A stretch of 64,000 nt of DNA from a virus (lineage: Duplodnaviria > Heunggongvirae > Uroviricota > Caudoviricetes): positions 1 to 64,000 of IMG/VR virus record IMGVR_UViG_3300033463_000007; one strand, 5' to 3'. Numbering within the stretch: position 1 is the first letter of the stretch; every line of letters begins with the position of its first letter. Shown in pieces: positions 2,983 to 27,644 of this stretch. The notes below the pieces were generated by a model, which was not told the DNA's origin, made no database searches, and saw only the letters and a list, made by a program, of their open reading frames with translations. The position numbers and the translations under genes were made by a program.

Positions 2983-2998
2983 TGCTAAATTAATTGAT
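2983..2998 (+). promoter_or_regulatory. Putative phage late promoter motif (TGCTAAATTAATTGAT)
   Basis: One of 10 intergenic copies of GCTAAATTA upstream of genes. Confidence 0.7.
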
Positions 2999-3070: not shown

Positions 3071-4123
3071 ATGGCAACATTACGTCCAGACCAAATGGAG
3101 GCAGCAAAAGCCTGATTATATGATTTGCTTGTAAGCAGCAAATTAATTAAAGTTACCAAAAAAATTCGTGATGATTGGTATTATAATAATGATTGATACT
3201 ATTCAAAATCTGATGCCCAGCAAATAGTAAGCACTATTATGGGTGACCGAACTGTTGGATATCAAAAATTTCTTGATTTAGATAAAACGTTAGAAGCTCT
3301 TTCAAAGAATCGTTTTACACCAAGTTTAACAAATCCACAGGCAAGAACAGTTAAAAAATCTGCAGATGTAATTGCAACTTATATTGCATATTTTTGTAAT
3401 TCTAAACAAATTTATTGAGATAATTCTCTATGTACACCTTTTGAGATGGATGAAATCAAAAAAACTAAACTCGGTAGTGCACTTTGGGACTATAACTGTT
3501 TTACTTCACAATATGGTACAACGTCAGCTATACCAAGTAAGGTAAAAACTGCTTCACCTTCTGCAAGTAGCACACGAACAGCTCCAACAGTCGGCTATAA
3601 GGCTTTAGGTGGCTTATCTAATATTGTTCCAAACCTTATATCACGTGGAAAAGTATATCCGGGCTCTACAAATTCTTTATTATATTGTATAGAAGCTGAT
3701 AAGCTTGGTGCTAATACTCCATGTATTTTTATTACCCCTGTACGTCAAGATGGTACACAAGTAAGTGCTGCAAATGCCAGCGCAGTTAAAGTAGGTAGTG
3801 GTAATGGTTATTCTGATTGTAAATTATGGTGGGAAGACCTTAATGTAGCACAAGATTTCTTAAATAAATGTCAACAAAAATTTAGTAATAGTAAATTTGG
3901 AAACTTACATATAGCCAAAGGTAGAAATGATAGCAATGGTTATTTTGAAGTTTCTACTGAATTTGGTAATGCTTTTATTAAAGCCTCTCGTTTAAATGAG
4001 GAAATTGTAGAAGCTATAGAAAATGAGCAAGAAATTGAAAATCCAGTACCTAAAAAACGCGGTGGCTATACTATTAAAAATATTGATGTTTATGATGAAG
4101 CATTTGATAGGTGTTTAAATTAA
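3071..4123 (+). CDS. Hypothetical protein (350 aa, code 4), possible internal head protein
   Basis: AGGAG RBS and ATG at 3071; 3 in-frame TGA join it to the 3446..4123 ORF; RLNEE site near the C-terminus. Confidence 0.8.
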
Positions 4124-4145
4124 ATAAATAGAGAGGTTAAAATAA

Positions 4146-5570
4146 ATGAAACTTAAAAAATTAGTTGAAGCTAAAACAAAATTAACTGAAGCTGATGAAT
4201 TTGAAGATAGAGCTACTGATCAAAATTTATCAGATATAAATCCAGCAACAGCTTCTGAGGAAACTATTGCAGCTGCATTACAAAATAATGTTGAAGATGC
4301 TACAGATGGAAATATTACTATACCAGATGATGCGGCTAAAAGAGCAGCTAGTGAAATTTCAGATACAGCTAAAGCAATAGATGCCGATGGTGTTGCAATG
4401 GCACCAGATGGCATACCCGGTATGAGTGATGATGAAGTATTAGGCGTAGAAAATGATATAACACGAACCCTAGATGATGCTCTTCGTATTGCACGTAAAG
4501 GTAAGCGTCAGCATCAAAAGAAAAACGCAAATGTATTAATTACAGGTTTACCGGGCTCGGGCAAAACTGCTATTGTAGAAGATTGAGCACACTCAAAAGG
4601 TATATACCCACGTACAGTTGAAACAACAGACCCAAATTTTAAAGAGGCTGTTTATGGTTTAACCTTAAGAGATATTACAAAAACTGATGTAAATAAAACA
4701 GCAAAAGCAGCTTCAAACTTCTTTGATGACCTTGACGAAAATGGTGAATGTATTTTATTTTTAGATGAGTTTAATAGAGGTGAAGAAGACTTAAGACGTG
4801 CAATTTTAACACTTGTTAATGAACATTGAATTCCAGATCCAAATTATCCAGAAGGACACAGATATTTTAATAATTTATTATTTTCTGTGGCTGCTATTAA
4901 CCCAGGTGGGCTTAGGTGAGATAGGAGCGCTGGAATACTTAATGATGCTGAAAAGTCAAGATTTTCTCAGCATATTGATTTTGATTCAAATGTTGAGACA
5001 ACTGTAGATTATTTTCAAAAGCATTGAGATAATGCCATTAAAAAATTAAATAAAAATGACCCATATTATTTAGAGGATCTTGAAGAGTATTTAAAAAGTC
5101 AACATTTGGGTTTATTTATTGTTCAAAATAGAAAATTTAAATATGATACAGCAGCTGATCAAGAAGAATTACATGAACTTTCTAAGGTAATGCTTAATCA
5201 GCGCGAATTAACAATAGGTATAAATTTCAGTGAAGGTGATGTAGACCGCTTTAAATTTTGAGTTGAAAAAAAGTCAAAATTTTTACAAAGAGATATTGAT
5301 ATGTTACTTGCAATATTAGCTCAATACCAGCAACCAACATTAGAACAACTTATTAAACTAAAAAATAGAGCACTTGGAATTGATTTATCACCCTCTGCGG
5401 CCTCTATGCAGCAAAAAGATACAGAAACTACTAAACCCGCAGTTCAAGATGATGATGAAGAGGATGATGCCAGTCATTTATTTATGGGAAATGGTAGTAA
5501 AGCCCCAACATTATCTCAGGCTGATGTAGAACTCATTCTTAGTGATGTAATAGACAATTTAAATTTTTAA
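4146..5570 (+). CDS. MoxR-like AAA+ ATPase (474 aa, code 4)
   Basis: Walker A GLPGSGKT, Walker B ILFLDEFNR, sensor-1 AAINP, Arg finger AEKSRF. Acidic N-terminal leader with LVE and LTE sites. Confidence 0.88.
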
Positions 5571-5593
5571 ATAAGTAATAAGGTAATTCAGCA

Positions 5594-6748
5594 ATGAAAA
5601 AAAGTTTACACTCAAATTTACTAAAAAAACCATTAGAAGAGGCTGATCTTAAGGTTTATAAAACAAAAAAAGAAGAAGAAGTAAAACAATGAATACTTAA
5701 AATGCTACGAGATGATGGTCATGGGCATCATTATCCTAAATTTGCTAAAAGATTTGAGGACTTTCTTTTTCAAATTGTTCGACAGCCAACAAATGAAGCT
5801 GATGATCCAGAGGCCTATTGGTTTACGGCTGCAACTAACTTTGAAATGCGTACTATCTGAATAGGCGAAGGCTTTCTAAAAGATGAATCTCTTCTTTATC
5901 AGGTAAGTGTTTTAATGCGTCATGAACTTCTTCATAATTTATTGATGCATGAAATTAGAATGATGCATAAAATTGGAGAAAAATCTTGAGCTCATTTTCA
6001 ATATAGTCAGTCTATTCAAAGTTTATTAAATATTATTGATGATTATGAAATTTCAAATGATATTGATGATGATCATCCAGGTGGTTACAGTAAAGAAGAT
6101 AAAATTATAGTAAAAAATATGACACTTAATGGTAAAGTAATTGGTGGCTTAGTTACTGAATTTGACCGACCAGATTGAGCCCGAATGAGTGTAGAAGAAA
6201 TGTATGATGCAATGACACAAGAAATTGCAGCTATTAAAGCTGGTATGGCAAAATCCTTAAGAAATTATTTGGGTCAATATATACCAGATAGTAAAGATCC
6301 GCTAAGACGTGAAATTGCATCAGCTAAAGCTAAGTATTCAGATATTACTTCGCCTAGTGCAATTCATATGCCAATAGGTGATTTTATAAATAGTCGTCTT
6401 TACAAGAGATACCCAAAAGTTATACAGGATGTAATTTCACAATTATATAAAGCTCTAGTATTAGAGCCAGATAGTTCATATGAAATGGCAAATTTCGATA
6501 GCTATTTAAATCAAATTGCTAATTCTGATCTTATGGAAGTTATAACATTACTAAGTCCTCAAAATAAAACAATAGTAGAATTACATACACCAGAGGAAAA
6601 GCAGCTGGCAATTGAGGTATTAAAAAATATAAGAGACTTTGACTGGGCAGCGGAATGACATAAAAGAGTTGTTAATGGTTTAGCTAATAAAACAACATAT
6701 TCAGATGCAGATATTCAGACTATCTTAGATGCTCTCGAAAATGAATAA
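5594..6748 (+). CDS. Putative zincin metallopeptidase, DUF2201_N-like (384 aa, code 4)
   Basis: FTAATN...VLMRHELLHNLLMHEIR...LLNIIDDYEISN pattern (HExxH); lies between the MoxR and vWA genes. Confidence 0.8.
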
Positions 6749-6762
6749 AAAAGGATATAAAA

Positions 6763-8418
6763 ATGAAAAAAAAGATATTATTTAAAACTTTAAATGAAGA
6801 TATAAATTCTAATGATACCACTTCTATACTTGGTGATTTAATTGATCCAGCAATTCGTGGTAAAGCAAAGGAAAGAATTCGTATTTTAGATCGGACGGCA
6901 TCTTTAGCAAGAAGGGCAGCCAAGAAAGCTAGAAAAAATAATGATTTTGAAAAAGCAGATGCGTTAGAAAAAAGAGCGGATGAATTAGAAACGCTAAAAA
7001 AACAAGCCCAGGAAGAATTGGCTGGCATCGAAGTACTGCCTGGTAAGAGTAGTACTAAAAATTCTGATGGTGAAGGTAACAAAGAAGACACCAGTGAAGA
7101 AGAAAAAGATAAGAAAGAAGATAAAGAGGGAGAGACTAAAGAAGAAACTACAGAAGAGGAAGATAAAGAAAGTAAAGAAAGTGATAAAAAAGAAGAAAAT
7201 AAAGATAAAACTGATAGTAAAAAAGGTAAAAGTAAGGATAAGGATAAAGATAACGAAGATGACGACGAAGATGATGATGACGATGAAGAAGATGACGACG
7301 AAGATGATGACGAAGATGATGACGAAGATGATGATGATGAAGAAGATGACGACGAAGAAGTTGAAATAGAAGTTAATCCTTTTGAAGATCCTAATGATCC
7401 AAATAAGAAACAAAAGAAAGGCAAAAAAGTAAAGCCAAAAGATCCAAGCGTTGAAAAACTTATTAGTATTTTAAAAAAAACACCTAAAGAAGCGCGACAG
7501 GGCGTTTTAGATGGTTTAAGAGATGTTTTAGATATTAGAAAAGGTACAAAAACGGAGTCTATACATGAAGCATTAAAACCTATGCCAACTGAAAGTTTAT
7601 TAGATTTATCTGATGATAGTTTTAATGATATGATAAATAATGTAATAGACGAGGTTAGTACTGTTATAGGTCTAGACATCGAAGACCCTGATGAAAATCG
7701 AGCAAAAATAGATCAAATCAAGGCTGATTTAGTTGATCCTATCGCACAGCAAGAACTTCAGCAAGAAGTTGAATTTAATCAACAAAAAGACTATCAAAAA
7801 ATTAAAGCTCGTGAACAGGAATTAGACCAATATAGGCATAAAGGTGCTTTTAAGAGTATAGCAGATTTTAAAATAAATTTTTGACGTGCAATTAATGATC
7901 AAGTAGATAAATGCAAAGTTAAAAAAGAAACTCCAACCCGTATTAATCCAAATTATGAGGGTGAAGATATAATTATACCGGGTACATATCACAGAACAAC
8001 TTATGATCCCAAAAAACCAAAAGTTGCAATTTTCTTTGACCAATCTGGTTCTTGGGGAGATAAAGAAATTGAAATTGGTGAAAAAGCTGTTTCTGTAATT
8101 AATGGTTTTAGAGATGCAGGTGAAATAGACTTAGAAATTTATTATTTTGCAGAAAAATTATCTACTAGAGCACATGATCCGTATATACGTTCTGGTACAA
8201 CTGCATGGCCATTAATTTTAAATCAAATAAAAGCTGATAACATTAATAATGTAGTAATAATGACAGATGATGATATGAATAGGTTGAGTATGGATTATGG
8301 AACCTGTAAAGTTGATGGTTGTGTTTGATATATTTGAAAAGACGGTGAACAAGCAGCAAACTTACCCCAAAAATTATTTGGTAAGCTTGGTACATACCAA
8401 TATGAATTTCATGTTTAA
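6763..8418 (+). CDS. vWA (MIDAS) domain protein with long charged/acidic linker (551 aa, code 4)
   Basis: C-terminal VAIFFDQSGS (DxSxS), SGT and VIMTD MIDAS motifs, reached by reading TGA at 7882 as Trp. Confidence 0.85.
7255..7359 (+). repeat. Low-complexity GAA/GAT/GAC tract encoding 35 consecutive Asp/Glu
   Basis: EDDDEDDDDDEEDDDEDDDEDDDEDDDDEEDDDEE; imperfect 12-nt units GAAGATGA(T/C)GAC. Confidence 0.9.
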
Positions 8419-8435
8419 TTAAGGAGTTAAAATTT

Positions 8436-8933
8436 ATGGTAATTAAAAAATTAACAGAAAACAAAAAAGAAAAACTACCTATAGATTTTTTAACTTCTAG
8501 TGCAAGTCAAGGCTGAAGTGAAGTTGGAAATTTAAAAGCCAGTTTAGATGGAATTAAACAAAATTTTTCTGGAACCACCAAAGTTGAGCAAATTCTTCAA
8601 GATCTTATCGATGCATATTTGGTTTATATTGGGCAATTAGAATTACTGATAGATAAAAAAGATTATCTTGAATTACCGGATGAAACTGATTTAAAATCAA
8701 AGTTAGCAGAAGACTTAGAAATTATAGTTAAACCTGAAAATAATAAAGTTGTTTTGGATATTAAAACAACAGAAGATGACGCAATAGCAGCTGAAGAACC
8801 TGAACAAATTATAGTCGCTAATGCAGATAAATCAGCTCCTTTTGAATATTTTTGCGATTTTGATGATCCAGTAGTTACTCAAGAAGAATCTTCTCCATAT
8901 AAAGCATGAACAGCATATACTAATAATATATAG
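8436..8933 (+). CDS. Hypothetical protein (165 aa, code 4)
   Basis: AAGGAG RBS; starts MVIKKLTEN; 2 in-frame TGA; ends in TAG before a terminator. Confidence 0.8.
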
Positions 8934-8959
8934 GACTTAAACAAGTAGATAATTAATTG

Positions 8960-8990
8960 AGAGCACATAAATTAATTTATGTGCTCTTTT
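8960..8990 (+). terminator. Intrinsic terminator (palindromic)
   Basis: AGAGCACATAAATTAATTTATGTGCTCT followed by TTT. Confidence 0.8.
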
Positions 8991-8993
8991 ATT

Positions 8994-9009
8994 TGCTAAA
9001 TTATACGAT
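8994..9009 (+). promoter_or_regulatory. Putative late promoter motif (TGCTAAATTATACGAT)
   Basis: Copy of the GCTAAATTA motif immediately after a terminator. Confidence 0.7.
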
Positions 9010-9091: not shown

Positions 9092-11017
9092 ATGAATATT
9101 ACAGAACTTAAAAAAAGAAAAAAATCAAATGTAACACAAACTGTTACTACTGGAAATATTCCATATAATATAAAACAATTTAATAAACATATGGGTACAG
9201 ATTCAAATAATCCGAGTACTGCTGAAGCACAAAAAGCTGCAAAAGCAGCTGCTAAAGAAGTTGGAACTATTGCTGCTGCTAGCCCAGATGGAGCTAATAC
9301 TATTATAACTTCTAATGAAGGTGGTACCATGTCAGAAAATTTAAAATTAACAGAAAGTTCAATAGTTAAAAAATCTATGGAATTATCTCCAGATAAGCAT
9401 TTAAGATGAGGCTGGGATAAAGGTGATATTTTTTGAGTAGAACAAATATCTAAAATGCCTGATAGCGAATTATTTAAGACAGATTTTCGTAAAATATACT
9501 CTTCTGAAGATGCCGCGGAAAAAGCTTTTAATAAATATGCTAAAAGATTAAAGGAATCAATCGCACTGAAAGAAGATAAAATGTATGCTGCAAGATTTGA
9601 TCAAACTTTTGACCTTCCGGATGATATTCATATTATAGATAAAAATACAATAGAAGATGAACTAGAAAAATTAGAGCCTGAAGAAATTTTTGAAGTTGGC
9701 TATATTACACCTATTTATTTTTATGCTGACCTTTGGGATAAGTTCACTCTTCTTAAATGTACACAATTAAAAGGATATACCGGTGTAGACTATATAGAAG
9801 CTAGGGCTAATGATGATGCAAATAAACAAGCAAGGATTGACATATCAAAACAAAATATTGCAAATGGCTCCGGTATTCATTTAAATAGACAGCCACTAGC
9901 TGGTAAAATTGGTGACTTTTCTGCTGATTATGCTAGTACAAATAAAACGGTATATCGGAAATCTATACTAACAGATGATTATAATACTTTACTATTTTAT
10001 CCAGAGGTTGGATCTAGGCCAACTGTAAAGTATTATATTGATTTACACAATGGTATGGGTTATTTACCAGTAAGACGTGATCAACTTGAACGTACTATTA
10101 TAAAGAAGGTCTCGGAATTTGCAGATCAACTTGCCTCATGAACAACAAAAGATGGTAAGTTAAAAACACAAAAACGTAGATGGACGGAAGCTCAATTAGC
10201 TGATAAAATTAGAAAACAAATAGCTGCAGATGCTGCAACAATTAATTCTGTTACATTAGATGCAACAAAAAGTATTGAAACACGTTCGAGAATTTCTGGA
10301 ACAGAAAAAAATACAACAGTAGAAAAGCCACAAGTTAGAGCTTTATATACAAATCAAATATACTTTTTAAAAACGCCTTATAGACAAATTGGCCAAATGA
10401 TTACAGAAAGTTTAAAATTACAAGAAGATAAACGTTATGTAAGACGTTATTATATTAGACCTCAAAATGTATTTTGTAGTAATAAACAGGATATTTTACA
10501 AGCATTAATTCAATTTGCCGATCAGAATTGTACTATTTATACATTAAACAATTTAGGTGATGAAAAAGATGTTACAAAATTAACAAATAATGATATAATT
10601 TATTATTATGATGATGGTATTCTTTTTGATAAAAACCATATTCGTATCATGGATTATGATTTATATATTAAACATGAAGAGGAACGTAAAAAGATAGACC
10701 CCGAAACAGTTTCTGATGCTACTTTTATAAATGTATACCAAGATAGAATTACAGATTCAACACGTACCGATGAGGCATTTAATCTAGACTTTGTAGATGT
10801 TAATGCATATGGTGAAATTTTAACTGAAGGTAAAGTTATTAATTTAACTTGTTGTATTTGTGGTGAACCAATTGAAGGTTATGGAAATAATCCAGAACCA
10901 TATATGTCTGCAGAACATGGTGAAAAATGTTGTGATAGTTGTAATATACATTACGTTATTCCAGCTAGGCTTGATCAGTTAGATACAAATGAAGAAGTAT
11001 CTTTAAAAGATAGATAA
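9092..11017 (+). CDS. Multi-domain hypothetical protein with C-terminal Cys zinc-finger (641 aa, code 4)
   Basis: ORFs 8957, 9455 and 10397 share one frame joined by TGA. Segments are bounded by LTE/LKE/ITE/LQE sites; CCICGEPIEGYGNNP...CCDSC. Start placed at ATG 9092 after AAGGAG. Confidence 0.8.
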
Positions 11018-11031
11018 AGAGGTTATTTATA

Positions 11032-13047
11032 ATGCAAAAAGAAATTACTATTCTTAATAATGATTTATTTGAAGATCTTACCTCTAAGTATCCAGATTTT
11101 GATTTTCAGCTTTGTATACCAACAGAAGAAGATTTTAATAAAATAACAACTAGATTTTTAGACTATAAAACAAATAAAGAAAATGCTGATTATATTAGTA
11201 CTCCCTGAGGGTTAGCACGTAGTGTCAAAAATAAATATAAGCAAATTAAATATTTTATAGTCGCAAAACTTATAGGATATGATGAATTAGTATTTGCATT
11301 ACAAAAAGAACTTAAAAAAAATTTTGTCAAAGACGATATAGTTGAAATTTTTAATTATATTAAATTACATTCTAATGAGCTTGCTAATTATGCTAATGCT
11401 GCTAAAAAATATATAGGTATGAAAACAGAGCCATTAACAGAAGCTAGTAATAATATGTCACCTTATGATAAGATGAAAGCTTTTGATCAGGGACAACGTA
11501 GAGAAAATGTTAAAGCTTGTGGTGAAGTAAAACTTTGTGATTATTATCGACTTTGTGCAAATTATAATTTTGAAAATGCCCGGCAGCAAATAGGTGCGGA
11601 ACTAATTAAACGTGGCCTAGGTAGATTTTTATTTATAGGCTCTTTAACAAAACTTCCAGATTTACAACCCACAGATTTTAAAAATTTAGATGCCTTTAAT
11701 GTTAATAATAAAACCGCTGTAGAGTTAATTCGTGATTTTGAAGAAAATCCAATACCAATTGAAACAGCCATAATTGGATTAATTAAAACTTTAATGCTTG
11801 CTTTATGTCTTAGAAAGACTGATTATGTAGAAGAATTAAAAAATTATTTAGTTGGTAAAGGCTTACTTAAGGGTGATTTTTTAAAAAATTATATCAAAAT
11901 TGCAATAAATAATCCACAAATTAATCTTGCTATTTCTAATATACTAAAAGATAATTTACATGAAGCTATAGAAAAGCATGATAAATTAAACCCTAAGCTA
12001 TGGAATGTAGATGCTACTTTAAAATCAGAAGTTAAAGATAAGATTTTAGAAATTGTTAAAGAGTTTGAAACTAACTTAGCTGAAGACAATATTAAGTTTA
12101 ATGTAAAAGATATAATTTTAGTTGGTTCAAATGTTAATTATAATTATACAAAAGATAGTGATTTAGACATTCATATTATTACAGATACTAGCTCATTAAA
12201 TTGTCCGGATAATTTATATCCTGCTTTATATTCTGCTTATAGAAGTTTATTTAATAAAAATCTTGATATTGAATTTTATGGAATTCCTGTAGAAATCTAT
12301 ATTGAAACAGAAGAATCACCAAGAGTAAGTAATGGCTGCTATTCAGTATCTCAAGATAAATGAATTAATGAGCCTAAAATTGAAAATATTCCAGACTATG
12401 ATGAAGAACAACTCAATAATTTAATTATGGAATGAGAAACTAAATATCATGAACTACTAAATAAAGATAATTTAACTGCTGATGATATTAACTCATTTAT
12501 TGAACAAATTTATGAGCTTAGAAAAGAAGGTCTTGCATCCGGCTCCGAATGAGATGTTAAAAATTTAACCTTTAAAGAATTTCGTAATAGAGGATACTTA
12601 GATCATCTTAAAGAGCTTAAAAATGAAATTAGGGGAAAAGAATTATCTTTGGAAAGCCTTGCAGAAGATACTGAAAAAGTTAAAGATCATAAATGAGTGA
12701 ATAAAGGTAAAGAAGGTACTCATGGAGAATTTAAAACTAAAAAAGAAGCAGATGCTCAAAGAAAAGCGATGTTTGCAAATGGTTTTCATGAAGATTATGA
12801 TACGATAGAACAATATAAAACTAAATTAAGACAAATTACTCATTATATTCCAATGATTCAAGAAAATGGATTGTTTGAACTTTATAATATTCCTGAGACA
12901 GATGTTTATTCTATAATGAATAAACTCAATCAATTGTCAGAAGTAGAATGAGTTCAAAAAGCACAATCTTCATTTGATTTTAATCATTTTACAATGAGTG
13001 GTCAACCAAAATCAAGATATAAAATTTATGGTCAACTAAAATTTTAA
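11032..13047 (+). CDS. Multi-domain protein with a Pol-beta-superfamily nucleotidyltransferase domain (671 aa, code 4)
   Basis: DIILVGSNVNYNYTKDSDLDIHII (hGS..DxD) and third acidic residue in GIPVEIYIE; single frame across in-frame TGAs. Confidence 0.85.
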
Positions 13048-13322: not shown

Positions 13323-14690
13323 ATGATACTTAATATAGAAAAACGCCCATGAACAGAAGAAGATATTGAATATTGATTAAATACTTCTGATGGCACAATA
13401 AATGAATTAATAAAATTTAATGATAAATATACTAGACTTCGTGCTGGGATTATTGTTATAAAAGATAATTTAATTCTTTTAAGTAGAGAACGTGATAAGC
13501 CAGATGAATTTGCAATTCCTGGCGGTGGAATTGAACCTGGGGAAACCCCAGTAGAAGCAGCTATACGTGAGGCGGCAGAAGAGGTAAATATTCTTATAAC
13601 TAATCCACAAGAAACTGGTTATGATTATTGCTTATGTGAAGATGAACCTTATGATTGAGTAAAAAATAATGTACCAAAAAATAAATGATGGTATAATTAT
13701 TATACTTGTTTGATTATTGGTAACTATGCTGGTCCATATAAAGGACAAATTGATAAACAAGACCTAGATCCAGCGATGAAGAATAATGCAAAATGGTATA
13801 AAATTACTGAGGTGATAAATGCCCCAACCTTTAAAGAGCAGTGAAAAAGAGCATTAATTAAATTTGGTTATTATAAAAGAGCTCTACAAGAAGACACCAG
13901 GTCTCAATTGATAGGAGCTTCACGAAATGCAGGTGCTTACATAAATCAAAGTCGTGGAAAAAACCGTTGAGATAGAAAAAAGTATTCTAAAGTTGCTAAT
14001 TCTGTAAAAAACTTTAACCAAATAAATATGGATCAGTTTTTTAAGCAAGATTTGCTTGAAATCAATATTCCAGTACAAGGTGAAACTAATGCCTATACAG
14101 TTACTATGAAGCTTAATGGTGTAGTAGCTGAAATTGCTAAAAATATTAAAAATAATTCTAATAAATTTGAATATCGCACAGTATTACAAGCTTTAACAAA
14201 AATATTTAATACAACTAATGTTTATATTAGCTGTAGCTGCCCCGACTTTCAGTTTACTTATAAACACTATTCAATTATTAACAATTGAGGTACAGAGGAT
14301 ACAGCAAGTGATCCAGGTCCGGGGAAGGGTATTAAAAATCCAAATAATGATAAAGGAAAAGGTTGTAAACATTGTCTTTTGGTTCTAAATAATCAGAGTT
14401 GATTAATGAAACTTACTTCCACAATTTATAATTATATAAATTATATGTCAACTAATATGCCAAAACCTTTTCAAAAACTTATTTTTCCTAAATTATACGG
14501 AATACCTTATGATGATGCCATTGAAAATAACCTGGTCCCAGAAGATACTAAATTAGAGTCTGAAAAACATATTATAGATGTAATTAATGATTGAGCTAAA
14601 AATAGAGGTAAGTTTAAACCAGGTACTAATAAGAATCCGGTAAGCAATGCTAATAAGGATAAAAAAGAAGATTCTACTGAAAATAAGTAA
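13323..14690 (+). CDS. Nudix hydrolase fused to a SWIM-type zinc finger domain (455 aa, code 4)
   Basis: Nudix box GGIEPGETPVEAAIREAAEEVNI; later YISCSCPDF...NP....GCKH. Mostly absent from the code-11 ORF track. Confidence 0.85.
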
Positions 14691-14746: not shown

Positions 14747-17700
14747 ATGATATCTGATAATTTAAATATAGAAGCTTTTAATAATTTATCAGAACAAGAA
14801 AAACAAGTTGCCTTGGAAATATTAAAACAGTATTCACAAGAAGGTAATTCTGAATTATTAGAGCAACTAAAATATTACGATTTTGAAGAAATACCTGTAG
14901 ATATTACAACATTTCTTCATGATAGACGATATCTTGGTAATGGACTTTATGATAATGAAGGACGCTTTACAGTCTTTCCGTATTGAGAAAAAACATTACA
15001 AGATATTTTCCCAGACAATTTAACAACAAAATATAATACTATTATTCTTCATGGTGCTATAGGTATTGGTAAAGCCCAACCATTAGATTCTTTAGTATTA
15101 ACCGAATTTGGATTTAAAAAAATGGGAGAGCTCTCTTTAGTGGATAAAGTATTTGGACGTGACGGGAAATTACATAATATTCTCGGTATTTTCCCGCAGG
15201 GTAAAAAACAAATTTGCAGAGTAACCTTTACAGATAATACTTCTACTCTTTGTTGTGATCAGCATCTTTGGACGGTCTATAACACTAAAAACAAAGCATG
15301 AACTACTATTGAGACTCGACAATTACTAGATGGAACTAGAAATTTAAACCATGCGACGGGACATCGTTATAAAATTCCAATGACAACTCCAGTCGCATTT
15401 AATAGTCAATCGGTTAGCATTGATCCTTATGTTTTAGGTGTTTTAATAGGAGATGGCTCGTTAACTACCAATGCTATTACATTTGCAAGTGCAGATAAAG
15501 AAATTATAGAAACTGTTCGTGCAAAATTAGCTACAGGCTATGAACTGCGTAAACTAAGAAATAAATATACTTATAGTATTTGCAAACAAAAAAACACAAC
15601 TTATTATAACAAAGAAACTAACACTCATATACCAACAAAAAATATATATACGGAAGCAATACAAAAACTTGCTTTAAACACTAAAGCTCAATATAAACAT
15701 ATACCAACTGAATATTTAATAAATGATGTTGAAACACGTATTGCATTACTTCAAGGTTTGATGGATACAGATGGTTCTATTACTAAAGATGGATCAGTAA
15801 TAACTTTTACAACCACTAGTGCTGCTTTGAAAGATGATTTTGTATTTTTAGTTCAATCTTTGGGCGGAATTTGTCATATAAGAACAAAAACACCAAAATA
15901 TTTTAATAAAAAATATAATGAATACCGCCAAGGCTTATTAACTTACAATATTGGAATTAAATTACCAAAAAGTATTAGTCCATTTAAGTTAACTAGAAAA
16001 GTAAACAGATTAAATACGAAGGCATTAGAACCATTTCGTTATATCAAAAATATTGAATATGTTGATAAGCAAGAATGTCAGTGTATTTATATTGATAGTG
16101 AAGAGCATCTATATTTAACAAATGATTTTATTGTCACACATAATACTTTAGTGGCTGTGCTTTGTGTACTATATATGCTATATAGACTTTTATGCTTAAA
16201 AGATCCATATACTTATTATGGCATGCAGTTAATTGATAAACTATCAATTTCTTTTATGAACATTACACTTGAAAATGCAAAAGGTGTAGCACTTGATAAA
16301 ATGAATCAATTAATTTTATCAAGTGAATGATTTTTAGCTCATGGAGAAATGTCTGGTAAAACAAACTTAATATATAGACCAAATAAACATATAGAATTTG
16401 TTACTGCTTCTAGTAACAACCAAATAATTGGTCGTGCAATTTTCTGTCTTGATGGAGAGACTATTATAAAGACAACTGAGGGCTATTCTAAATTAGTAGA
16501 TCTAGTTGATAAAGATATTAAAGTTATCTCAGTTGATGATATGGGTAAAAAAGTTATTAGTGATAGGTGTACAGTAAAGCCGACTATTAAAACTTCTGAA
16601 GAATATCAAATTGAGCTTGAAGATGGCACTATTATTAAATGTACATCAAACCATAAATTATTGCTTAAAAATGGTTCATATAAAGAGGCCCAAAATCTAA
16701 CAGAAGAAGATGAATTAGCTGAGATCCAAGTCACTTATGAAGAATTTATAAGTAGTATGAAGATTAAATCAATTAAAAAAGTTATACTAGCTGAGCCTAA
16801 ACAATACTATGATATAATAGAAGCTGCGCCATATCATAATTTTATTATTAAAACAAATAATTCTGAAATTATTTCACATAATTGTAATTTTAGTGATGAG
16901 GTTAACTTTGCAATATTCAATGACCCAGAGAAACAAAAGAAAAAAATGATGAAACTACTTACACAAGTAGATGCTCGTCAAAGATCGCGTTTCTTAAGAG
17001 GTACTTATTTACCTACATTAAATATTTTAGCTTCATCTGCAGATACACAACAATCTTTCTTACAAGCATATATTAAACAAAAAAGAGAAGCTGAATCTAC
17101 TACTACTTTAATTGTAGAAGAGCCTCAATGAGTAGTTGATAGTAGAAAAGATACTCCTGAAAAGTTTTATGTAGGAATTGGAAATAGATTACTTCCAAAT
17201 GAGCTATTTCCATTAGATGTAACTGAAGCGGAAATTGATGTAGCTCGAAATAAAGGTTATCAAATTTGGAAAGTTCCTATGGGTTATTTAGAAACTTTCC
17301 AACAAAACCTTGATGAGGCAATTTGTTCCATTATTGGTATCTCAACAGATAGTTCTTTAAAATATATTTCCGGTGACAGACTACAACAAATAAAGGTTAA
17401 CACCTATTTAAATCCATTTATAAAAGATATTATTGAAGTTGGCAATGGAAAAGATGATTTTTTACAATATGCTAATTTCTTTGATAAGAATCGAATTAAT
17501 CCAGATGATGTTGGAAAACCGTTATTTATTCACTTAGACTTATCATTATCTGGTGACAAAACAGGCATTGCCGGTACTTGAATTACAGGTAAGAGACCAA
17601 CTATTGTACAGCAGTCATTATTAACAAATGGAGAAGAAAATACTGTTGATTATTCACTTGATTTACAGTATAAACTAGCTTTTTCTGTTTCAATTAAGGC

Positions 17701-18319
17701 TCCCAAGGGTACTCAAGTATCTTTTGAAAAAACAAGAACCTTTATTAGATGGTTACGAGATCAGGGTTTTGCAATAAAAGTAATATCTGCAGATACTTAT
17801 AATTCCGCACCAATATTACAAGAATTAAAAGCTGATGGTTTTAGAACAGAAATTGTTTCTGTAGACCGTGTAGATGCAAGAACAAAAATACAACAACAAT
17901 ATGCTTATTTTAAATCAGCTATCTATGAGCGACGAGTTGAAATTTATGAAAAATGTGATTTACTAACGGAAGAAATTCTTCAGCTTGAGCGACTTGGAAA
18001 TGGTAAAATAGAGCATGAAGATGCAGGTAAACGTGGCAGTAAAGACCAATGTGATGCATTTTGTGGAAGTTTATGATCAGCAAGTAGATTTGCAGAAGAA
18101 TATTCCTATTCATATGGCGATAATTTATCTGTATCATTAGATGCAAATTCAGATGCTATTGATAATTATAATAAACAGCAATTTATTGCAGCTTTTGAAC
18201 AGGAACTACAATCTATACAAAATGAATTTACTAAAGTAAATAAATTAAAAGATCAGCAACAACAAGAAGAGTGACAATACTATCAAGATATATCAGATGG
18301 CATAATTGTTATTAATTAA
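14747..18319 (+). CDS. terL: Terminase large subunit with two inteins (1190 aa precursor, code 4)
   Basis: Walker A GAIGIGK|T, Walker B AIF|CNFSDE, RNase H-like nuclease IHLDLSLSGD and SKDQCDA; directly upstream of portal. Confidence 0.92.
15074..16144 (+). mobile_element. Class 3-type intein with LAGLIDADG homing endonuclease (357 aa) in TerL Walker A
   Basis: Starts AQPLDS (Ala1); block B DQHLW; block F ECQCIYID; ends IVTHN|T. LAGLIDADG motifs LGVLIGDGS and LQGLMDTDGS. Confidence 0.92.
16445..16882 (+). mobile_element. Mini-intein (146 aa, class 1) at TerL Walker B
   Basis: Starts CLDGET; block B CTSNH; block F YYDI; ends ISHN|C; no endonuclease domain. Confidence 0.92.
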
Positions 18320-21249: not shown

Positions 21250-23019
21250 ATGAATAATAGAGATATTGTAGAAGCTTTTCATTTAACTCCTTTAAGTGAG
21301 GAGGAAAAAACTTCTAAGCATATATTAGGCAGGCTTTATGGTCCCATTGCAACCTGTACAGAAAGTACGCGTAATGGCAGGCGCTATAATAAAGTACTTT
21401 GGGAACGAGCATTAAGTGATGAGTTAATGCAAGAAAAAATTAAAAATAAATGTTTATTTCTTGAATTAGGACATCCTGTTGATCGTGAAGAAGTTGATAT
21501 GACTAAAGTATGCGCTTGCATTCCGGAGTTACCTAAAATTATAGATAATGATTTATATGCTTATGTTGATATACTAGATACTCCAAATGGTAAAATCTTA
21601 AAAACACTTTGTGATTATGGTTTTACCCCTGGAATTTCCTCCAGAGGCTCTGGTGATGTTGATATAAATAATGATGTAGACCCTGAAACTTTTTATTTAG
21701 AAACATTTGATATAGTAAATCTTCCAGCAGTTAAAAAAGCAAGACTTGCAATGTGTGAAAGTTTAAATAATAAGAAAACTTTAAAACAAGCTCTCACAGA
21801 GTCCTTAAAAAATGCCGGAGAGAAAGATAAAGAGATTATGAAAGAAGCGTTAGATAATTTAGATATTAAGGTTGAAGAAACTGATGAAAAGGATATTCCC
21901 TGGGCTGCTGATGAGGAAGAATCATCAGTATTAGTAGAAGCTAATGATGAAGTTGATGAAGAGTCCACAGAAGACACCGATGATATAGAAGCTGAAGAGT
22001 CTGATGAATATTCTGATTTTGATATTGTTAGTGACGCTGCTACAGTTGGAGATCTTATTAAAGAATTTGAGGACTATGATAAAGATTTACAACTTGAGTT
22101 TGCTCCAATAGATATTAATGGCCAAGAAATTAAAATAAATGGTTTAGGGTTTGATCCTTCTGAAGAGGGAAAATTAGTACTTTCAATTGGTTATTCCCAA
22201 GAAATTGGTGATAATATAGATGATGCTGAAGTAACTGATGAGGCTACTGATGAAATTGAGTCAGAAGAAACTGAAGAAAATTCAGAGACAGTCGATGATG
22301 TTGAGGACACTGAAGTTGATGAGGTTTTGGAAAATTTAAAAGAAGCAATTCGTCAGAAAAATTTATTTGAACAAGAGCTTAAAACTTTAAAGAATGAACA
22401 AACAGTCCGTGATACAGAAGTAAGTACATTAAAAGAAGAAGTTAATCGTTATAAAACGGCTTTCGCTAGAACAAGTAAATTAGCTGCAGATGCTACAAAG
22501 CTCAGAGAAAAAATACAACATAAAGATGTAGAAATTCGAAAATTAAAAACTGAAGCTTCTACACGTTTAACTGAAAGCATTGAAACAAATACCTCAACAA
22601 TTAATATGCTTTCTGAAAAGCTCAAAGCTAGTCAAGCTGAAATTGAGAGTTTAAATGCTAAACTTGAAGAACAAGCAAACACTTATAATAAGAAATTAAA
22701 TTCTTATATAAAAACAGCTAGGTCTTATCAGGCTAAGTATAATGAAGCAATGGACAAATATATTGAATACAGAGCTTCAATGCTGGGAGTTAGACCTGTA
22801 GAAATTAAAAATAAACTAACTGAAAACTTCACTCCAGCTGATATTGAAACCGCTTGTGATGCAGTATTAGATGAGAGTATGAATTTAAGTAAGCTTCCAT
22901 TTGGATTAGAGAAACATTCTAGAATTCAGATAAATGAATCCAAGTCAGCTAAGAAATCCACAGTTGAGGGTGGTTATGATATTGATGATTCATTATTAGA
23001 GCTTGCTGGATTAAAGTAA
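21250..23019 (+). CDS. Prohead protease (T4 gp21-like) fused to acidic/coiled-coil scaffold
   Basis: TRNGRRY, LELGHP, GISSRGSG, ETFDIV..PA; C-terminal two-thirds acidic then coiled coil with many L/I-x-E sites. Confidence 0.9.
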   Translation: MNNRDIVEAFHLTPLSEEEKTSKHILGRLYGPIATCTESTRNGRRYNKVLWERALSDELMQEKIKNKCLFLELGHPVDREEVDMTKVCACIPELPKIIDNDLYAYVDILDTPNGKILKTLCDYGFTPGISSRGSGDVDINNDVDPETFYLETFDIVNLPAVKKARLAMCESLNNKKTLKQALTESLKNAGEKDKEIMKEALDNLDIKVEETDEKDIPWAADEEESSVLVEANDEVDEESTEDTDDIEAEESDEYSDFDIVSDAATVGDLIKEFEDYDKDLQLEFAPIDINGQEIKINGLGFDPSEEGKLVLSIGYSQEIGDNIDDAEVTDEATDEIESEETEENSETVDDVEDTEVDEVLENLKEAIRQKNLFEQELKTLKNEQTVRDTEVSTLKEEVNRYKTAFARTSKLAADATKLREKIQHKDVEIRKLKTEASTRLTESIETNTSTINMLSEKLKASQAEIESLNAKLEEQANTYNKKLNSYIKTARSYQAKYNEAMDKYIEYRASMLGVRPVEIKNKLTENFTPADIETACDAVLDESMNLSKLPFGLEKHSRIQINESKSAKKSTVEGGYDIDDSLLELAGLK

Positions 23020-23071: not shown

Positions 23072-24385
23072 ATGAGACAAAATTTACTTGAAACTTATTC
23101 AAGACAGCTCTCAGTTGCAGAGGCCTATGTTGCTAAGAATTTTGACGGACGTCAGATTTCTAATAACACCAAGCTTGCTACTGCAGTTCTGCTTGATAAT
23201 ACTAATCGTTGGATTACAGAGTCTATTAATGAGTCTGTAGCAACTTCTCGTGCAGACCTCGGTTCTTGGAAGAGATTCTGCCTTAATCTTACAAATATTG
23301 CTGTTCCTTCCCTTATCGCTAATGACCTCGTTATTGTTCATCCAATGACTTCTTACAGCGGTTCAGTTGCATACTTAAAGTATGTTTCTAAGACTGAAAA
23401 GGGTGACATTCACAATGGTACAGAGTTTAACAGTGTATTCGGTCTTGGAAAGATGACTGATGCTCGTAGAGATTTCACATCTCAGGTTATTGTTGAGTCT
23501 GTTGGTTCTGGTGGAGCAGTTCCTACTCTTACTCCTGTTGAGGGTGGACTTTCCTATGAGGAAGATATGGCCATTAAGAGAGCTACTTATAAGTCTGTTC
23601 TTGCTGATGGTACCGCTGTTTATGGTGATTCTGTAGATCCTGCAGCTGTTAAGTTTGCTTATGTTTCTAGAGAATTCCAGATGGAGCAGGTTCCTGCAGA
23701 AGATATTCCTACCATTGGTCCTAAGATGGAGCACATTGCTCTTGTAGCTGAGCCTCGTAGAATTGCTGTTCGTTATGACCAGATCACTGCATTCCAGGCT
23801 AAGACCGACTATGGCTTCTCTCTTGATAAGCAGATTGCTGAGCAGGCTTGTGGCGAGCTCGCTTATGAGATCGATACTGATATCGTAGACATGCTCCGCG
23901 AGGGTGCTGGTGAAGCTAATGAAGAGCTTGTTTGGTATAAGACTCTTCCTGTTGGCGTTTCCAAGTTTGAGCATTACAATGGCTTCCTCGAAGTTATTGA
24001 AAAAGCTCGCGCTATCATCTATAACAGAACTCAGAAGTTCCATCCTAACTTCATGGTTATTGCAGCTGATGTTCTTCCTGTTCTCAGATTCGTTAACGGC
24101 TTCTCCGCTGTAAAGAATCCTAAGATGAATGGTCCTTATAAGGTTGGTGAACTTGACTCCCTCGGAGTTTATGTATCTCCTAGACTTGGCTCTGGCGAAT
24201 TCTTCTTCGGCCTCAATGGTTCCGATATGATGAGCTCCGCTGGTGTGTATGCTCCTTATATGGCAATCGTTCCTACTCAATTACTTGGAACTCCTGACGG
24301 CGGCTTAGCACAGGGCTTCAGTACTTGGTATGCCAAGGCTCTGCTTAATGCTAACCTCCTAGTTGCCGGTAAGATTGTTGCTTAA
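23072..24385 (+). CDS. Major capsid protein, T4 gp23-like
   Basis: LIANDLVIVHPMT..SG, LAYEIDTDI, GVYAPY motifs; codon bias typical of highly expressed genes; followed by a strong terminator. Confidence 0.93.
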   Translation: MRQNLLETYSRQLSVAEAYVAKNFDGRQISNNTKLATAVLLDNTNRWITESINESVATSRADLGSWKRFCLNLTNIAVPSLIANDLVIVHPMTSYSGSVAYLKYVSKTEKGDIHNGTEFNSVFGLGKMTDARRDFTSQVIVESVGSGGAVPTLTPVEGGLSYEEDMAIKRATYKSVLADGTAVYGDSVDPAAVKFAYVSREFQMEQVPAEDIPTIGPKMEHIALVAEPRRIAVRYDQITAFQAKTDYGFSLDKQIAEQACGELAYEIDTDIVDMLREGAGEANEELVWYKTLPVGVSKFEHYNGFLEVIEKARAIIYNRTQKFHPNFMVIAADVLPVLRFVNGFSAVKNPKMNGPYKVGELDSLGVYVSPRLGSGEFFFGLNGSDMMSSAGVYAPYMAIVPTQLLGTPDGGLAQGFSTWYAKALLNANLLVAGKIVA

Positions 24386-26039: not shown

Positions 26040-27644
26040 TTGAAAAATATACTTGATCTTTGTAAAGAATTATCTATACCACAAGATAAAATTCAGCCTT
26101 ATGGTTGGGATAAAGCTAAAATTGATTTAAGAGCAGAAGATTTAATAGATAAACCTAGTGGAAAGCTTGTGTTAGTTACTGCTTGTTGTAATGCTGAAGT
26201 AGCAGGTATGGGTAAAACATCTACGGAAATTGCTATTAACCAGTCTTTAAATTATTTAGGTGTTAAATCTATTGCTTGCCTAAGAGAGCCCTCTCTTGGT
26301 GTTAGTGTTAATGGTAAAGGAGGAGCTACAGGAGCATTAAATGCACAAGTAGAACCAGCTGATCAGATTAATCTGCACTTTCTAGGAGATATCCATGCGT
26401 TAACTTCTACAATAAATCTTATTGCTGCACAAATTGATAATGTAATTTATCAAGGTAATGAATTAAATATTGATCCTAATAAAATTGTCTGGAATAGAGC
26501 TATTGATATTTGTGATAGATCTTTAAGAAGTGTTACGGTGGCACAAGATGATAAAAAGGCTACTCCACATCACTGTGAATTTGTTATAACTGTTGCGCAT
26601 GAATTATCTACTATTATGACATTAGCTACCGATGAAGATGATTTTATTAATCGAACTGAAAAAGCTATTGTAGCATATACTTATGATGATAAACCTATTA
26701 CGGTTGCTGATTTACATATGAGTAAATGCATTAGAAAATTAATGCATGAGGCTTTAAAGCCAAATATTGTAATGTCAACATCTGGAGCTCCCTGTCTCAT
26801 CAGTGCCACACCTTTTGGAAATATCTCGGTTGGTTGTTCAGCGACAAGAGCTACTAAACTTGCATTAAAATTAGCAGATATTACTTTTGTAGAAAATGGT
26901 TTTGCTAGTGAACTTTCTTGTGAAAAACATCTAGATTTAGTTTTACCAAGTGCCGGCTTAATTCCTGATGCTATTATGGCTGTTATTTCCTGTAGGTCAT
27001 TAAAGTATCAAGGTGGCCAACCTAATGATAAGTTAAGTGAAGAAAATGCTCGGGCGGTACAAGTAGGCTTAGTAAATATGGCTGCTCATATTAAGCATTT
27101 AAGAAACTATAATATCCCAATTGTTATTGCAATAAATAAATTTAGTTGTGATACAGATGCAGAAATTAAAGTCGTTACTGAGTATCTAGATTCAGAAAAA
27201 CTTCCTTATGCAATAAGCGAAGGCCCTCTAAAAGGTGAAATAGGTAGTATAGATTTAGCTAAAGTACTATTACAAACTTTAAACGCTACAAAAGTTACTA
27301 CATATAATACTTTGTATCAATGGAATGAACCTATTAAAACAAAGATAGAAAAAATTTGTACAAAAGCTTATGGAGCTACTGCTGTTGAATATTCAGAAGA
27401 AGCCCTTAAACAAATTGAAAATTATACAAATAGAGGCTATAATAATTTACCTATAGTAATGTGTAAGACACCAGCATCAATTACAGAAGACCCGAAAATC
27501 CTTGGAATGCCCAAAGAACATACTATTCATATAAGAGAAGTTCGACTTTTTGCCGGGGCGGGCTTCTTAGTCCCAATTTCAGGTTCTTTGCTTATGCTTC
27601 CAGGCCATGTTAAAAACCCTAGACTTTTAGACAGTTATAAATAA
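26040..27644 (+). CDS. fhs: Formate--tetrahydrofolate ligase (FTHFS), divergent
   Basis: PYG..KAKID, GKLVLVTA..GMGKTS, LREPSLG..KGGA, INLHFLGDIHA, AINKF..DTDAEI, LPIVMCKT, IREVRLFAGAGF..LPG; TTG start after AAAGGA. Confidence 0.92.
   Translation: MKNILDLCKELSIPQDKIQPYGWDKAKIDLRAEDLIDKPSGKLVLVTACCNAEVAGMGKTSTEIAINQSLNYLGVKSIACLREPSLGVSVNGKGGATGALNAQVEPADQINLHFLGDIHALTSTINLIAAQIDNVIYQGNELNIDPNKIVWNRAIDICDRSLRSVTVAQDDKKATPHHCEFVITVAHELSTIMTLATDEDDFINRTEKAIVAYTYDDKPITVADLHMSKCIRKLMHEALKPNIVMSTSGAPCLISATPFGNISVGCSATRATKLALKLADITFVENGFASELSCEKHLDLVLPSAGLIPDAIMAVISCRSLKYQGGQPNDKLSEENARAVQVGLVNMAAHIKHLRNYNIPIVIAINKFSCDTDAEIKVVTEYLDSEKLPYAISEGPLKGEIGSIDLAKVLLQTLNATKVTTYNTLYQWNEPIKTKIEKICTKAYGATAVEYSEEALKQIENYTNRGYNNLPIVMCKTPASITEDPKILGMPKEHTIHIREVRLFAGAGFLVPISGSLLMLPGHVKNPRLLDSYK

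Follow-up and report, generated by a model that had tools for sequence, protein, structure and literature searches.

A cluster of three adjacent genes in an uncultured phage raises the question of what machine they encode and where this machine acts. The cluster lies in what we call the window, the whole stretch of 64,000 nucleotides that was analysed, which makes up the initial 64 kb of a contig of 232,051 bp with overlapping ends (IMG/VR record IMGVR_UViG_3300033463_000007). It encodes, on the plus strand, a MoxR-type AAA+ ATPase (4146–5570), a zincin metallopeptidase with the HExxH motif (5594–6748) and an acidic protein with a C-terminal von Willebrand factor A (vWA) domain (6763–8418). 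This locus is a split, three-polypeptide version of the MoxR ATPase and zincin-vWA pair of jumbo phages and is situated among virion-morphogenesis genes. Each of the three proteins starts with a short Lys-rich leader, and these leaders suggest that the trio would be directed to the prohead.

The gene models depend on the genetic code. With translation table 11 the trio genes were interrupted, solely by in-frame TGA codons; the ATPase frame stopped just past the Walker A motif, and the upstream topA gene was split into three pieces. The true gene ends were TAA or TAG, and all the in-frame stops were TGA. These TGA codons occupy columns in which Trp is invariant or nearly invariant in standard-code homologues (e.g., ATPase W147 and zincin W195) and are read as Trp; the 232-kb genome, detected in bovine gut metagenomes of several studies, is that of a jumbo phage of the cattle gut which decodes TGA as Trp. 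Its clade probably infects a Firmicute of this habitat. None of the sequencing runs listed as containing the stretch was an RNA run. Under code 4 the window became a compact gene array, nearly all on the plus strand, with complete genes at 4146–5570, 5594–6748, 6763–8418 and 8436–8933. The three adjacent genes of an initial annotation made from the sequence are real, and under this code both their limits and the N-termini quoted for them and for the next gene were exact, with a Shine-Dalgarno-like site at each start. Outside the window, a Trp/Tyr-type class-I tRNA synthetase (PF00579, E 1e-71) lies beside a class-I peptide release factor (PCRF + RF-1) at G000:C1:177006-179060 (locus L042:507-2558). 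In the 232-kb genome ARAGORN detected just tRNA-Lys, Leu, Gln and Pro together with a tmRNA (209640–210045), and no UCA suppressor tRNA. The synthetase and release factor pair and this tRNA set bear on how TGA comes to be decoded as Trp in this phage.

The ATPase has 474 aa and consists of the leader, an acidic N-terminal region, the AAA+ core and an acidic C-terminal tail. Its Walker A (GLPGSGKT, aa 134–141) and Walker B (LFLDEFNR, aa 204–211) motifs, as well as AAINP with the sensor-1 Asn and EKSRF with the Arg finger, are invariant columns among 33 homologues. The Pfam model AAA (PF00004) matched it with 26.2 bits, over the cut-off, and AAA_5 (19.1 bits) and AAA_3 (13.8 bits) were under theirs; most of about 120 ATPase homologues carry precomputed matches to PF07726/PF07728 (AAA_3/AAA_5). 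The best relative of the family profile among solved structures was the MoxR protein 2r44 (E 5.9e-5). At least 145 homologues, of 440–560 aa, were found on contigs of up to 233 kb. A subgroup of about 545 aa (L002, L012 and L014, e.g., L002:9713-11347; P0042, P0055 and P0090), whose genes have a GTG start, shows an insert of about 80 residues after the first leader site. This insert begins (A/F)YIDQSGSL, which resembles the DxSxS of a metal ion-dependent adhesion site (MIDAS), in a stretch too short for a vWA domain.

The zincin, of 384 aa and of the DUF2201_N kind, contains HELLHNLLMH at aa 110–119 (nt 5921–5950), and the pattern RHExxHxxxxHxxR is invariant in its family, which reached 479 members at E ≤ 1e-3 in a scan of 1.84 billion representatives. 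In the structure model (predicted local distance difference test 86.6) the N-terminal domain aligned to minigluzincins with Z of 6.3–6.9, a moderate score whose matches were consistently zincins, and more weakly to M48, SPRTN and Wss1; an additional C-terminal helical domain of about 170 aa follows. The match of the window zincin to PF13203 (DUF2201_N) had an E of 0.043 and 13.9 bits, with a cut-off of 23.2. This model was found in 9/31 family members (best E 6.4e-12), and the members that match it are tied to the window zincin at E down to 5e-18.

The third protein (551 aa, isoelectric point 4.6) has a run of 35 Asp/Glu residues (nt 7255–7359), and its MIDAS is formed by DQSGS (aa 426–430, nt 8038–8052) and MTDDD (aa 500–504, nt 8260–8274); the DxSxS and TDxD columns are invariant in homologues. 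Pfam gave no match to it, and PF09967 (VWA-like) matched one fused homologue (E 1.2e-4). A Foldseek search with its model gave NorD as the top match, followed by integrin I domains, with an E of only 3e-3 and other Rossmann folds interleaved. NorD is the vWA partner of the MoxR-type NorQ in the NorQD complex; here the vWA gene lies two genes downstream of the ATPase gene. All these results sustain the identities originally assigned to the three proteins, whose catalytic motifs are intact.

The idea that the trio is the split form of proteins fused elsewhere was borne out, as homologues with the HExxH zincin and the vWA domain in a single protein exist, and phages RSL1, BCSR5 and Staphylococcus phage DC4 are cultured analogues with two-gene pairs of marginal similarity. 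In RSL1 ORF092 (L027:6206-7918) and BCSR5 QRE00206 (L028:6383-8191) the layout of N-terminal domain, acidic linker and vWA domain is kept and the HExxH motif is lost (e.g., LLHMCQHLLSGH), so the peptidase of these two analogues is probably inactive. Proteins of the DUF2201 type (PF13203 + PF09967, with an adjacent MoxR-like ATPase) share with the trio an N-terminal HExxH domain, an acidic linker and a short vWA domain with MIDAS, and fused relatives of the window proteins match both DUF2201 Pfam models. However, the window proteins themselves are below the Pfam thresholds and the zincin has the extra helical domain. A MoxR AAA+ gene paired with a metallopeptidase-vWA gene has been reported in jumbo phages of group 2.2 (Iyer, Anantharaman, Krishnan, Burroughs and Aravind, 2021; PMC7824862), and to call the trio an undescribed system, as was done in the initial annotation, was therefore an overstatement. 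Both cases have a MoxR ATPase, an HExxH peptidase and a vWA domain encoded next to each other by jumbo phages whose heads are T4-related; in the window, by contrast, peptidase and vWA domain are separate genes, the (L/I)xE leaders are conserved, and the phage belongs to an uncultured clade with remote sequence similarity to the cultured examples. Our literature search did not reveal any paper on a split form with leaders, nor any joining capsid targeting and MoxR. The split three-gene form, the conserved leaders with protease sites, the link of these leaders to gene fission and the fact that they swap between partners are new.

Sixteen IMG/VR loci, on contigs of up to 233 kb that mostly use the standard code, share the gene order of the window: PDF-like, TopA, the gene at 3071, ATPase, zincin, vWA protein, the genes at 8436 and 9092, nucleotidyltransferase, the gene at 13323, terminase and portal. 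Among these genomes identity is 73–79% for the capsid protein, 55–65% for terminase and portal, and 26–36% for the trio. A profile of the fused forms added 24 further loci, which form a sister clade with the same neck, sheath and tube genes and a capsid protein 42–49% identical. In this clade the ATPase gene and, directly downstream, a fused zincin-vWA gene are placed between the capsid and neck genes. The module is thus found in synteny with the genes for terminase, portal, protease and capsid in about 40 related contigs of uncultured jumbo phages, and in both clades it is embedded among morphogenesis genes. Single-protein scans of IMG/VR with the window ATPase and with the fused homologue P0180 gave zero matches; the alignment-based scans, however, did find relatives. 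When a collection of 50,697 phage records was searched by tblastn, the window ATPase, P0180 and P0225 also gave zero matches, and P0057 gave matches at the level of the P-loop only, in RSL1, BCSR5 and HHTV-2.

The leader of the ATPase (nt 4146–4190) is MKLKKLVE↓AKTKLTE↓AD, with two (L/I)-x-E sites (arrows follow the Glu); that of the zincin (nt 5594–5641) is MKKSLHSNLLKKPLEE↓AD, and that of the vWA protein (nt 6763–6798) is MKKKILFKTLNE↓D. The small protein encoded by the next gene has a leader-like start, MVIKKLTE↓N (nt 8436–8459). We defined a leader as L/I-x-E with the Glu at residue 6–16 and with two or more K/R and no D/E before it. Only 5/229 open reading frames (ORFs) of the 232-kb genome fit this rule, four of which are the consecutive genes of 4146–8933, a run whose chance was about 5e-6 by simulation. 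In the ATPase and zincin families the leader is conserved as a basic stretch of 8–16 residues that has (L/I)-x-E at its end, and a second site is frequent. Thus, [LIVMF]xE occurs within the first 15 residues in 114/119 ATPases (shuffles, 54±4.9), and two or more sites occur within the first 45 residues in 107/119 (shuffles, 68±4.8). In the long forms of the zincin the first count is 36/40 (shuffles, 14.2±2.9), and in its distant leaderless forms it is 2/16 (shuffles, 6.6). The residue at P3 is L or I in 114 of the ATPases and the Glu is at residue 8–12 in 107, whereas the zincin leader has Ala at P1' in 33/39 and places its site directly before the first conserved block of the domain; residues 1–20 of the zincin model are disordered. 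A position matrix built from the ATPase leaders (MKI[KN]K) misses those of the zincin and the vWA protein, so the leaders share a form and not a sequence.

Such motifs could be a compositional accident in an AT-rich genome rich in K, L, I and E, as about 45–60% of the shuffled N-termini hold the motif by chance. However, it was observed in 95–100% of the natural ones, with 45–62% expected, and 0/500 shuffles reached the value observed for the ATPase family. The site is also fixed at residue 8–12, the homologues free of the extension are depleted in it (the 2/16 given above), and four consecutive genes fit the leader rule. We consider chance a practically negligible explanation; the comparison of sequences indicates that Lys-rich leaders ending in (L/I)-x-E are more frequent than it would produce.

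The distribution of the leaders follows the architecture of the proteins. Among the best 147 of the 479 zincin family members, an N-terminal extension is present in 62/79 split forms (59/62 with a site) and in 1/32 fused zincin-vWA proteins, the other 31/32 starting at the domain (Fisher p = 4e-14, a nominal value since the sequences are related). The initial annotation had proposed to check whether relatives keep the leaders; they do, and fused or standalone homologues start exactly at the conserved domain. In the sister clade it is usually the ATPase that bears the leader (MKIRKVLNEA, MKVDKNLLEA, MKIRIVES and others), and its fused partner has none. The reverse arrangement was seen at L066:8643-11632, with the leader MIKNKNLKINNSIIE↓S on the fused zincin-vWA protein and an ATPase without it. 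A simple rule would account for this distribution. A fused zincin-vWA protein that binds the ATPase would need only one leader per complex, because it would ride in on its partner, and after gene fission each polypeptide would need its own. Strong binding between MoxR and vWA proteins is known, e.g., between p618 and p892, two proteins from Acidianus two-tailed virus (ATV).

The enzyme presumed to cut these leaders is encoded in the same window. The initial annotation assumed a phage with a protease like gp21 of T4, and indeed the product of 21250–23019, on the plus strand, joins a prohead protease of the T4 gp21 family to a tail that resembles a scaffold protein, with a Peptidase_S77 match above the cut-off (E 1.2e-11) and a match to phrog_207 (E 5.7e-34). 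The major capsid protein encoded next to it (23072–24385, plus strand) is gp23-like and has near residue 50 a conserved site, W(I/L/M)TE↓S; the site kept is (I/L/M)-T-E↓S, for which the sister clade has L-x-E↓A, and it is followed by a variable stretch and then by the conserved body. The T4 protease gp21 cleaves behind L/I-X-E, and the 10 N-terminal residues of IPIII are enough to load foreign proteins into the head (PMC9026906). Several sites are often present in the propeptides of giant-phage head proteins (PMC10052503). Because the leaders are basic stretches of about 10 residues with a fixed L/I and Glu, and because a gp21-family protease and the same site in the capsid protein accompany them, they are best explained as T4-like signals for prohead targeting and processing, a reading that we hold to be probable by a modest measure. 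The leaders of T4 IPI-III and Alt are likewise of about 10 residues, with a Glu near position 10 and an L/I three residues ahead of it, and T4 has the same kind of protease and a gp20/gp23-type head. However, the T4 cargo consists of small basic proteins or a single enzyme, whereas that of the window would be a putative three-part, ATP-driven machine of acidic proteins, and the leader sequences have no similarity.

If the leaders work in this way, they would bind the trio proteins to the prohead core, as the capsid-targeting sequences of T4 do, and would then be removed by the prohead protease. In the mature machine, by the usual logic of MoxR systems, the MIDAS would hold an acidic residue of the target, the AAA+ ring would remodel this target with ATP and the zincin would cut it. 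The target could be part of the head while this matures, or a protein of the host once the machine has been ejected.

The leaders could instead be propeptides of the zymogen type, cut by the HExxH peptidase of the trio itself with no participation of the head protease. The active site of the zincin is intact, minigluzincins, its closest folds, are made as zymogens, and the leaders are grouped on the trio and the genes beside it. However, a leader of like kind is found in the unrelated family of the neighbouring gene at 9092, whose relatives start MKINKTPITEE or MIINKPALIEA, and the capsid protein carries the same site. Moreover, proteases of the gp21 family are documented to be specific for (L/I)-x-E (PMC9026906). 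Self-processing of this kind is highly improbable in our opinion. To our knowledge, specificity has been described for no zincin of this family.

A different possibility is that the trio is a cytoplasmic chaperone for assembly and a processing system for parts of the virion that is never incorporated into the particle, with leaders serving, for instance, translation initiation through A-rich codons, or regulation. A role in virion assembly and peptidolytic processing is what Iyer et al. (2021) proposed for the jumbo-phage pair (PMC7824862). The module sits among morphogenesis genes, the MK(I/K)KK starts are rich in AAA codons, and MoxR-vWA pairs are generally maturation chaperones. However, an effect on translation initiation leaves unexplained why the L/I at P3 and the Glu at P1 are conserved at residue 8–12 while the rest of the leader varies. 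Neither does it explain why a leader is gained when the gene is split and swapped between partners, nor why the same site is present in the capsid propeptide. For these reasons this alternative appears rather unlikely to us.

Several observations weigh against prohead targeting. The initial annotation placed leaders on all four genes, and this stands for the ATPase and the zincin, in which they are conserved across homologues; those of the vWA protein and of the 8436 protein, however, are conserved solely in the near subclade of the window. In the large standard-code clade the vWA protein starts MDIKDILDS, with no Glu site. The motif (L/I)xE is short, and its density over whole proteins showed no enrichment in the capsid protein, the scaffold or any of the trio, which makes this count uninformative. 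Because the homologues share ancestry, they are less independent than the figures from the shuffles and the Fisher test imply. Very acidic proteins and an ATPase that forms hexamers would be unusual cargo for a head filled with DNA. Finally, the collection of 50,697 phage records holds no cultured member of this clade, and the virion detection reported for an analogous ATPase, that of phage DC4, is called provisional by its own authors (PMC10638138).

That detection is a precedent for a virion-borne MoxR ATPase. In Staphylococcus jumbo phage vB_SauM-UFV_DC4, the AAA ATPase encoded beside a metallopeptidase-vWA gene was found in purified virions by liquid chromatography-mass spectrometry (PMC10638138). 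The products of UFVDC4_00011 and UFVDC4_00012 are like those of the window an acidic AAA+ ATPase followed by HExxH, an acidic linker and a vWA domain with DTSGS; however, the two partners are a pair in which the second is fused and has no (L/I)xE leader, and the similarity is marginal (E 5e-4 to 0.02). In ATV, the MoxR protein p618 is a major virion component that binds the vWA protein p892 and is involved in particle morphogenesis (PMC4124505). By its description this is also a virus-encoded MoxR-vWA pair, but of an archaeal spindle virus and with no peptidase, head protease or leader.

The initial annotation went beyond prohead targeting and proposed that the trio, once processed, remains in the mature capsid, leaves it together with the DNA and takes apart proteins of host defence. 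All the support for prohead targeting applies here too. In addition, only the N-terminal sites are conserved and internal (L/I)xE motifs are not enriched (4 in the vWA protein, with 8.6 expected), which agrees with retention. In T4, sites restricted to the N-terminus are typically seen in proteins that the head retains, as opposed to scaffold proteins. The low identity of the trio (30–36%) relative to that of the capsid protein (73–79%) is the expected one under an arms race, but such fast evolution also fits a low constraint on the acidic linkers. As a precedent for the anti-defence function, the MoxR ATPase of phage Bas54 is needed against the defence system DS-28, and a leader-bearing protein of T-even phages blocks McrBC (PMC13716836). 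However, Bas54 belongs to a different phage group and both precedents bear on this locus by analogy only. A PADLOC search gave no significant match, only marginal P-loop matches (E 1e-3 or weaker), and NCBIfam models likewise gave only marginal matches. We consider unlikely that the trio is retained, ejected and directed against host proteins as proposed. Equally doubtful, and perhaps slightly more so, is the complete scheme of an AAA+/MIDAS/zincin machine addressed by its leaders to the prohead, which the head protease would mature and the capsid would keep until its ejection with the DNA to dismantle host defence complexes.

An assembly role is under discussion and, since 2026, so is an anti-defence role of a phage MoxR ATPase. 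A conserved leader with a protease site, whose presence follows gene fission and which changes from one partner to the other, offers a concrete and cheap test of where the machine acts. Prohead targeting of the trio would carry the capsid-targeting idea of T4 over to a large clade of uncultured jumbo phages from the gut. Such leaders could, on confirmation, be used to list head-packaged proteins straight from metagenomic phage genomes. If the ejected machine were also true, no earlier example of an AAA+ machine injected as phage cargo would be known, and the leader rule would become a general predictor of packaged effectors in uncultured T4-like jumbo phages.

The trio belongs to a unit of five genes (3071–8933), delimited because the only terminators are at its borders: a hairpin terminator after topA (2939–2970) upstream and another on the plus strand (8959–8988) downstream, with none between 2970 and 8959. 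The promoter-like motif GCTAAATTA follows the first terminator (2984–2992, plus strand), and the next copy follows the second one at 8995. This motif also precedes the head, sheath, tube and baseplate genes, so that co-regulation of the trio unit with structural genes, with late timing, is plausible from the sequence. In the window there are 10 copies, with 3.1 expected, and 31 across the genome, some of them in non-structural regions such as those of replication and metabolism. The initial annotation had placed the trio behind a late motif: the motif is present at 2984 and precedes structural genes, but, as copies also lie in the replication and metabolism regions, late expression is no more than plausible and the reading of GCTAAATTA as a late promoter was not confirmed. 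Nearly all copies are intergenic and oriented with the downstream gene. Their 3' extensions are of two kinds, ATTAATTGA or ATTATA(C/T)GA in one and ATTAATTAG or ATTAATAAA in the other, which might mark two promoter classes.

The first gene of the unit (3071–4123, plus strand) encodes a protein of 350 aa with an isoelectric point of 8.4, with no leader and syntenic in all relatives, for which family searches gave no match. The last (8436–8933, plus strand) encodes the small acidic protein of 165 aa (isoelectric point 4.3), which has a conserved C-terminal PFEYFCDFDDP. Acidic-aromatic FDF strings, of which this motif is one, recur in different members of the unit, as (E/D)FDFDE in the vWA linkers of relatives and as DFDS..FG ... 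FDFSL at the end of most ATPases; by their sequence, they may be short docking motifs, for example for the MIDAS site. The conserved protein encoded downstream of the unit (9092–11017, plus strand) starts MNITE↓LKKRKK.

The unit is upstream of a T4-type head module, and the genes downstream of it encode a nucleotidyltransferase-domain protein, a NUDIX protein, a large terminase bearing an intein, a T4 gp20-type portal, the Peptidase_S77 protease and the gp23-like capsid protein. The first of these, of the Pol-beta type (11032–13047, phrog_36119), accompanies the module in both clades despite the differing positions of the module. An intein that contains a LAGLIDADG homing endonuclease splits the large terminase gene (14747–18319; matches to Intein_splicing with E 1e-9 and to LAGLIDADG_3 with E 1e-10), and the intein-free terminases of relatives have about 680 aa. 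Within the head cluster there is also a full-length formate-tetrahydrofolate ligase gene (26208–27644; PF01268, E 1e-154), which contains zero TGA codons.

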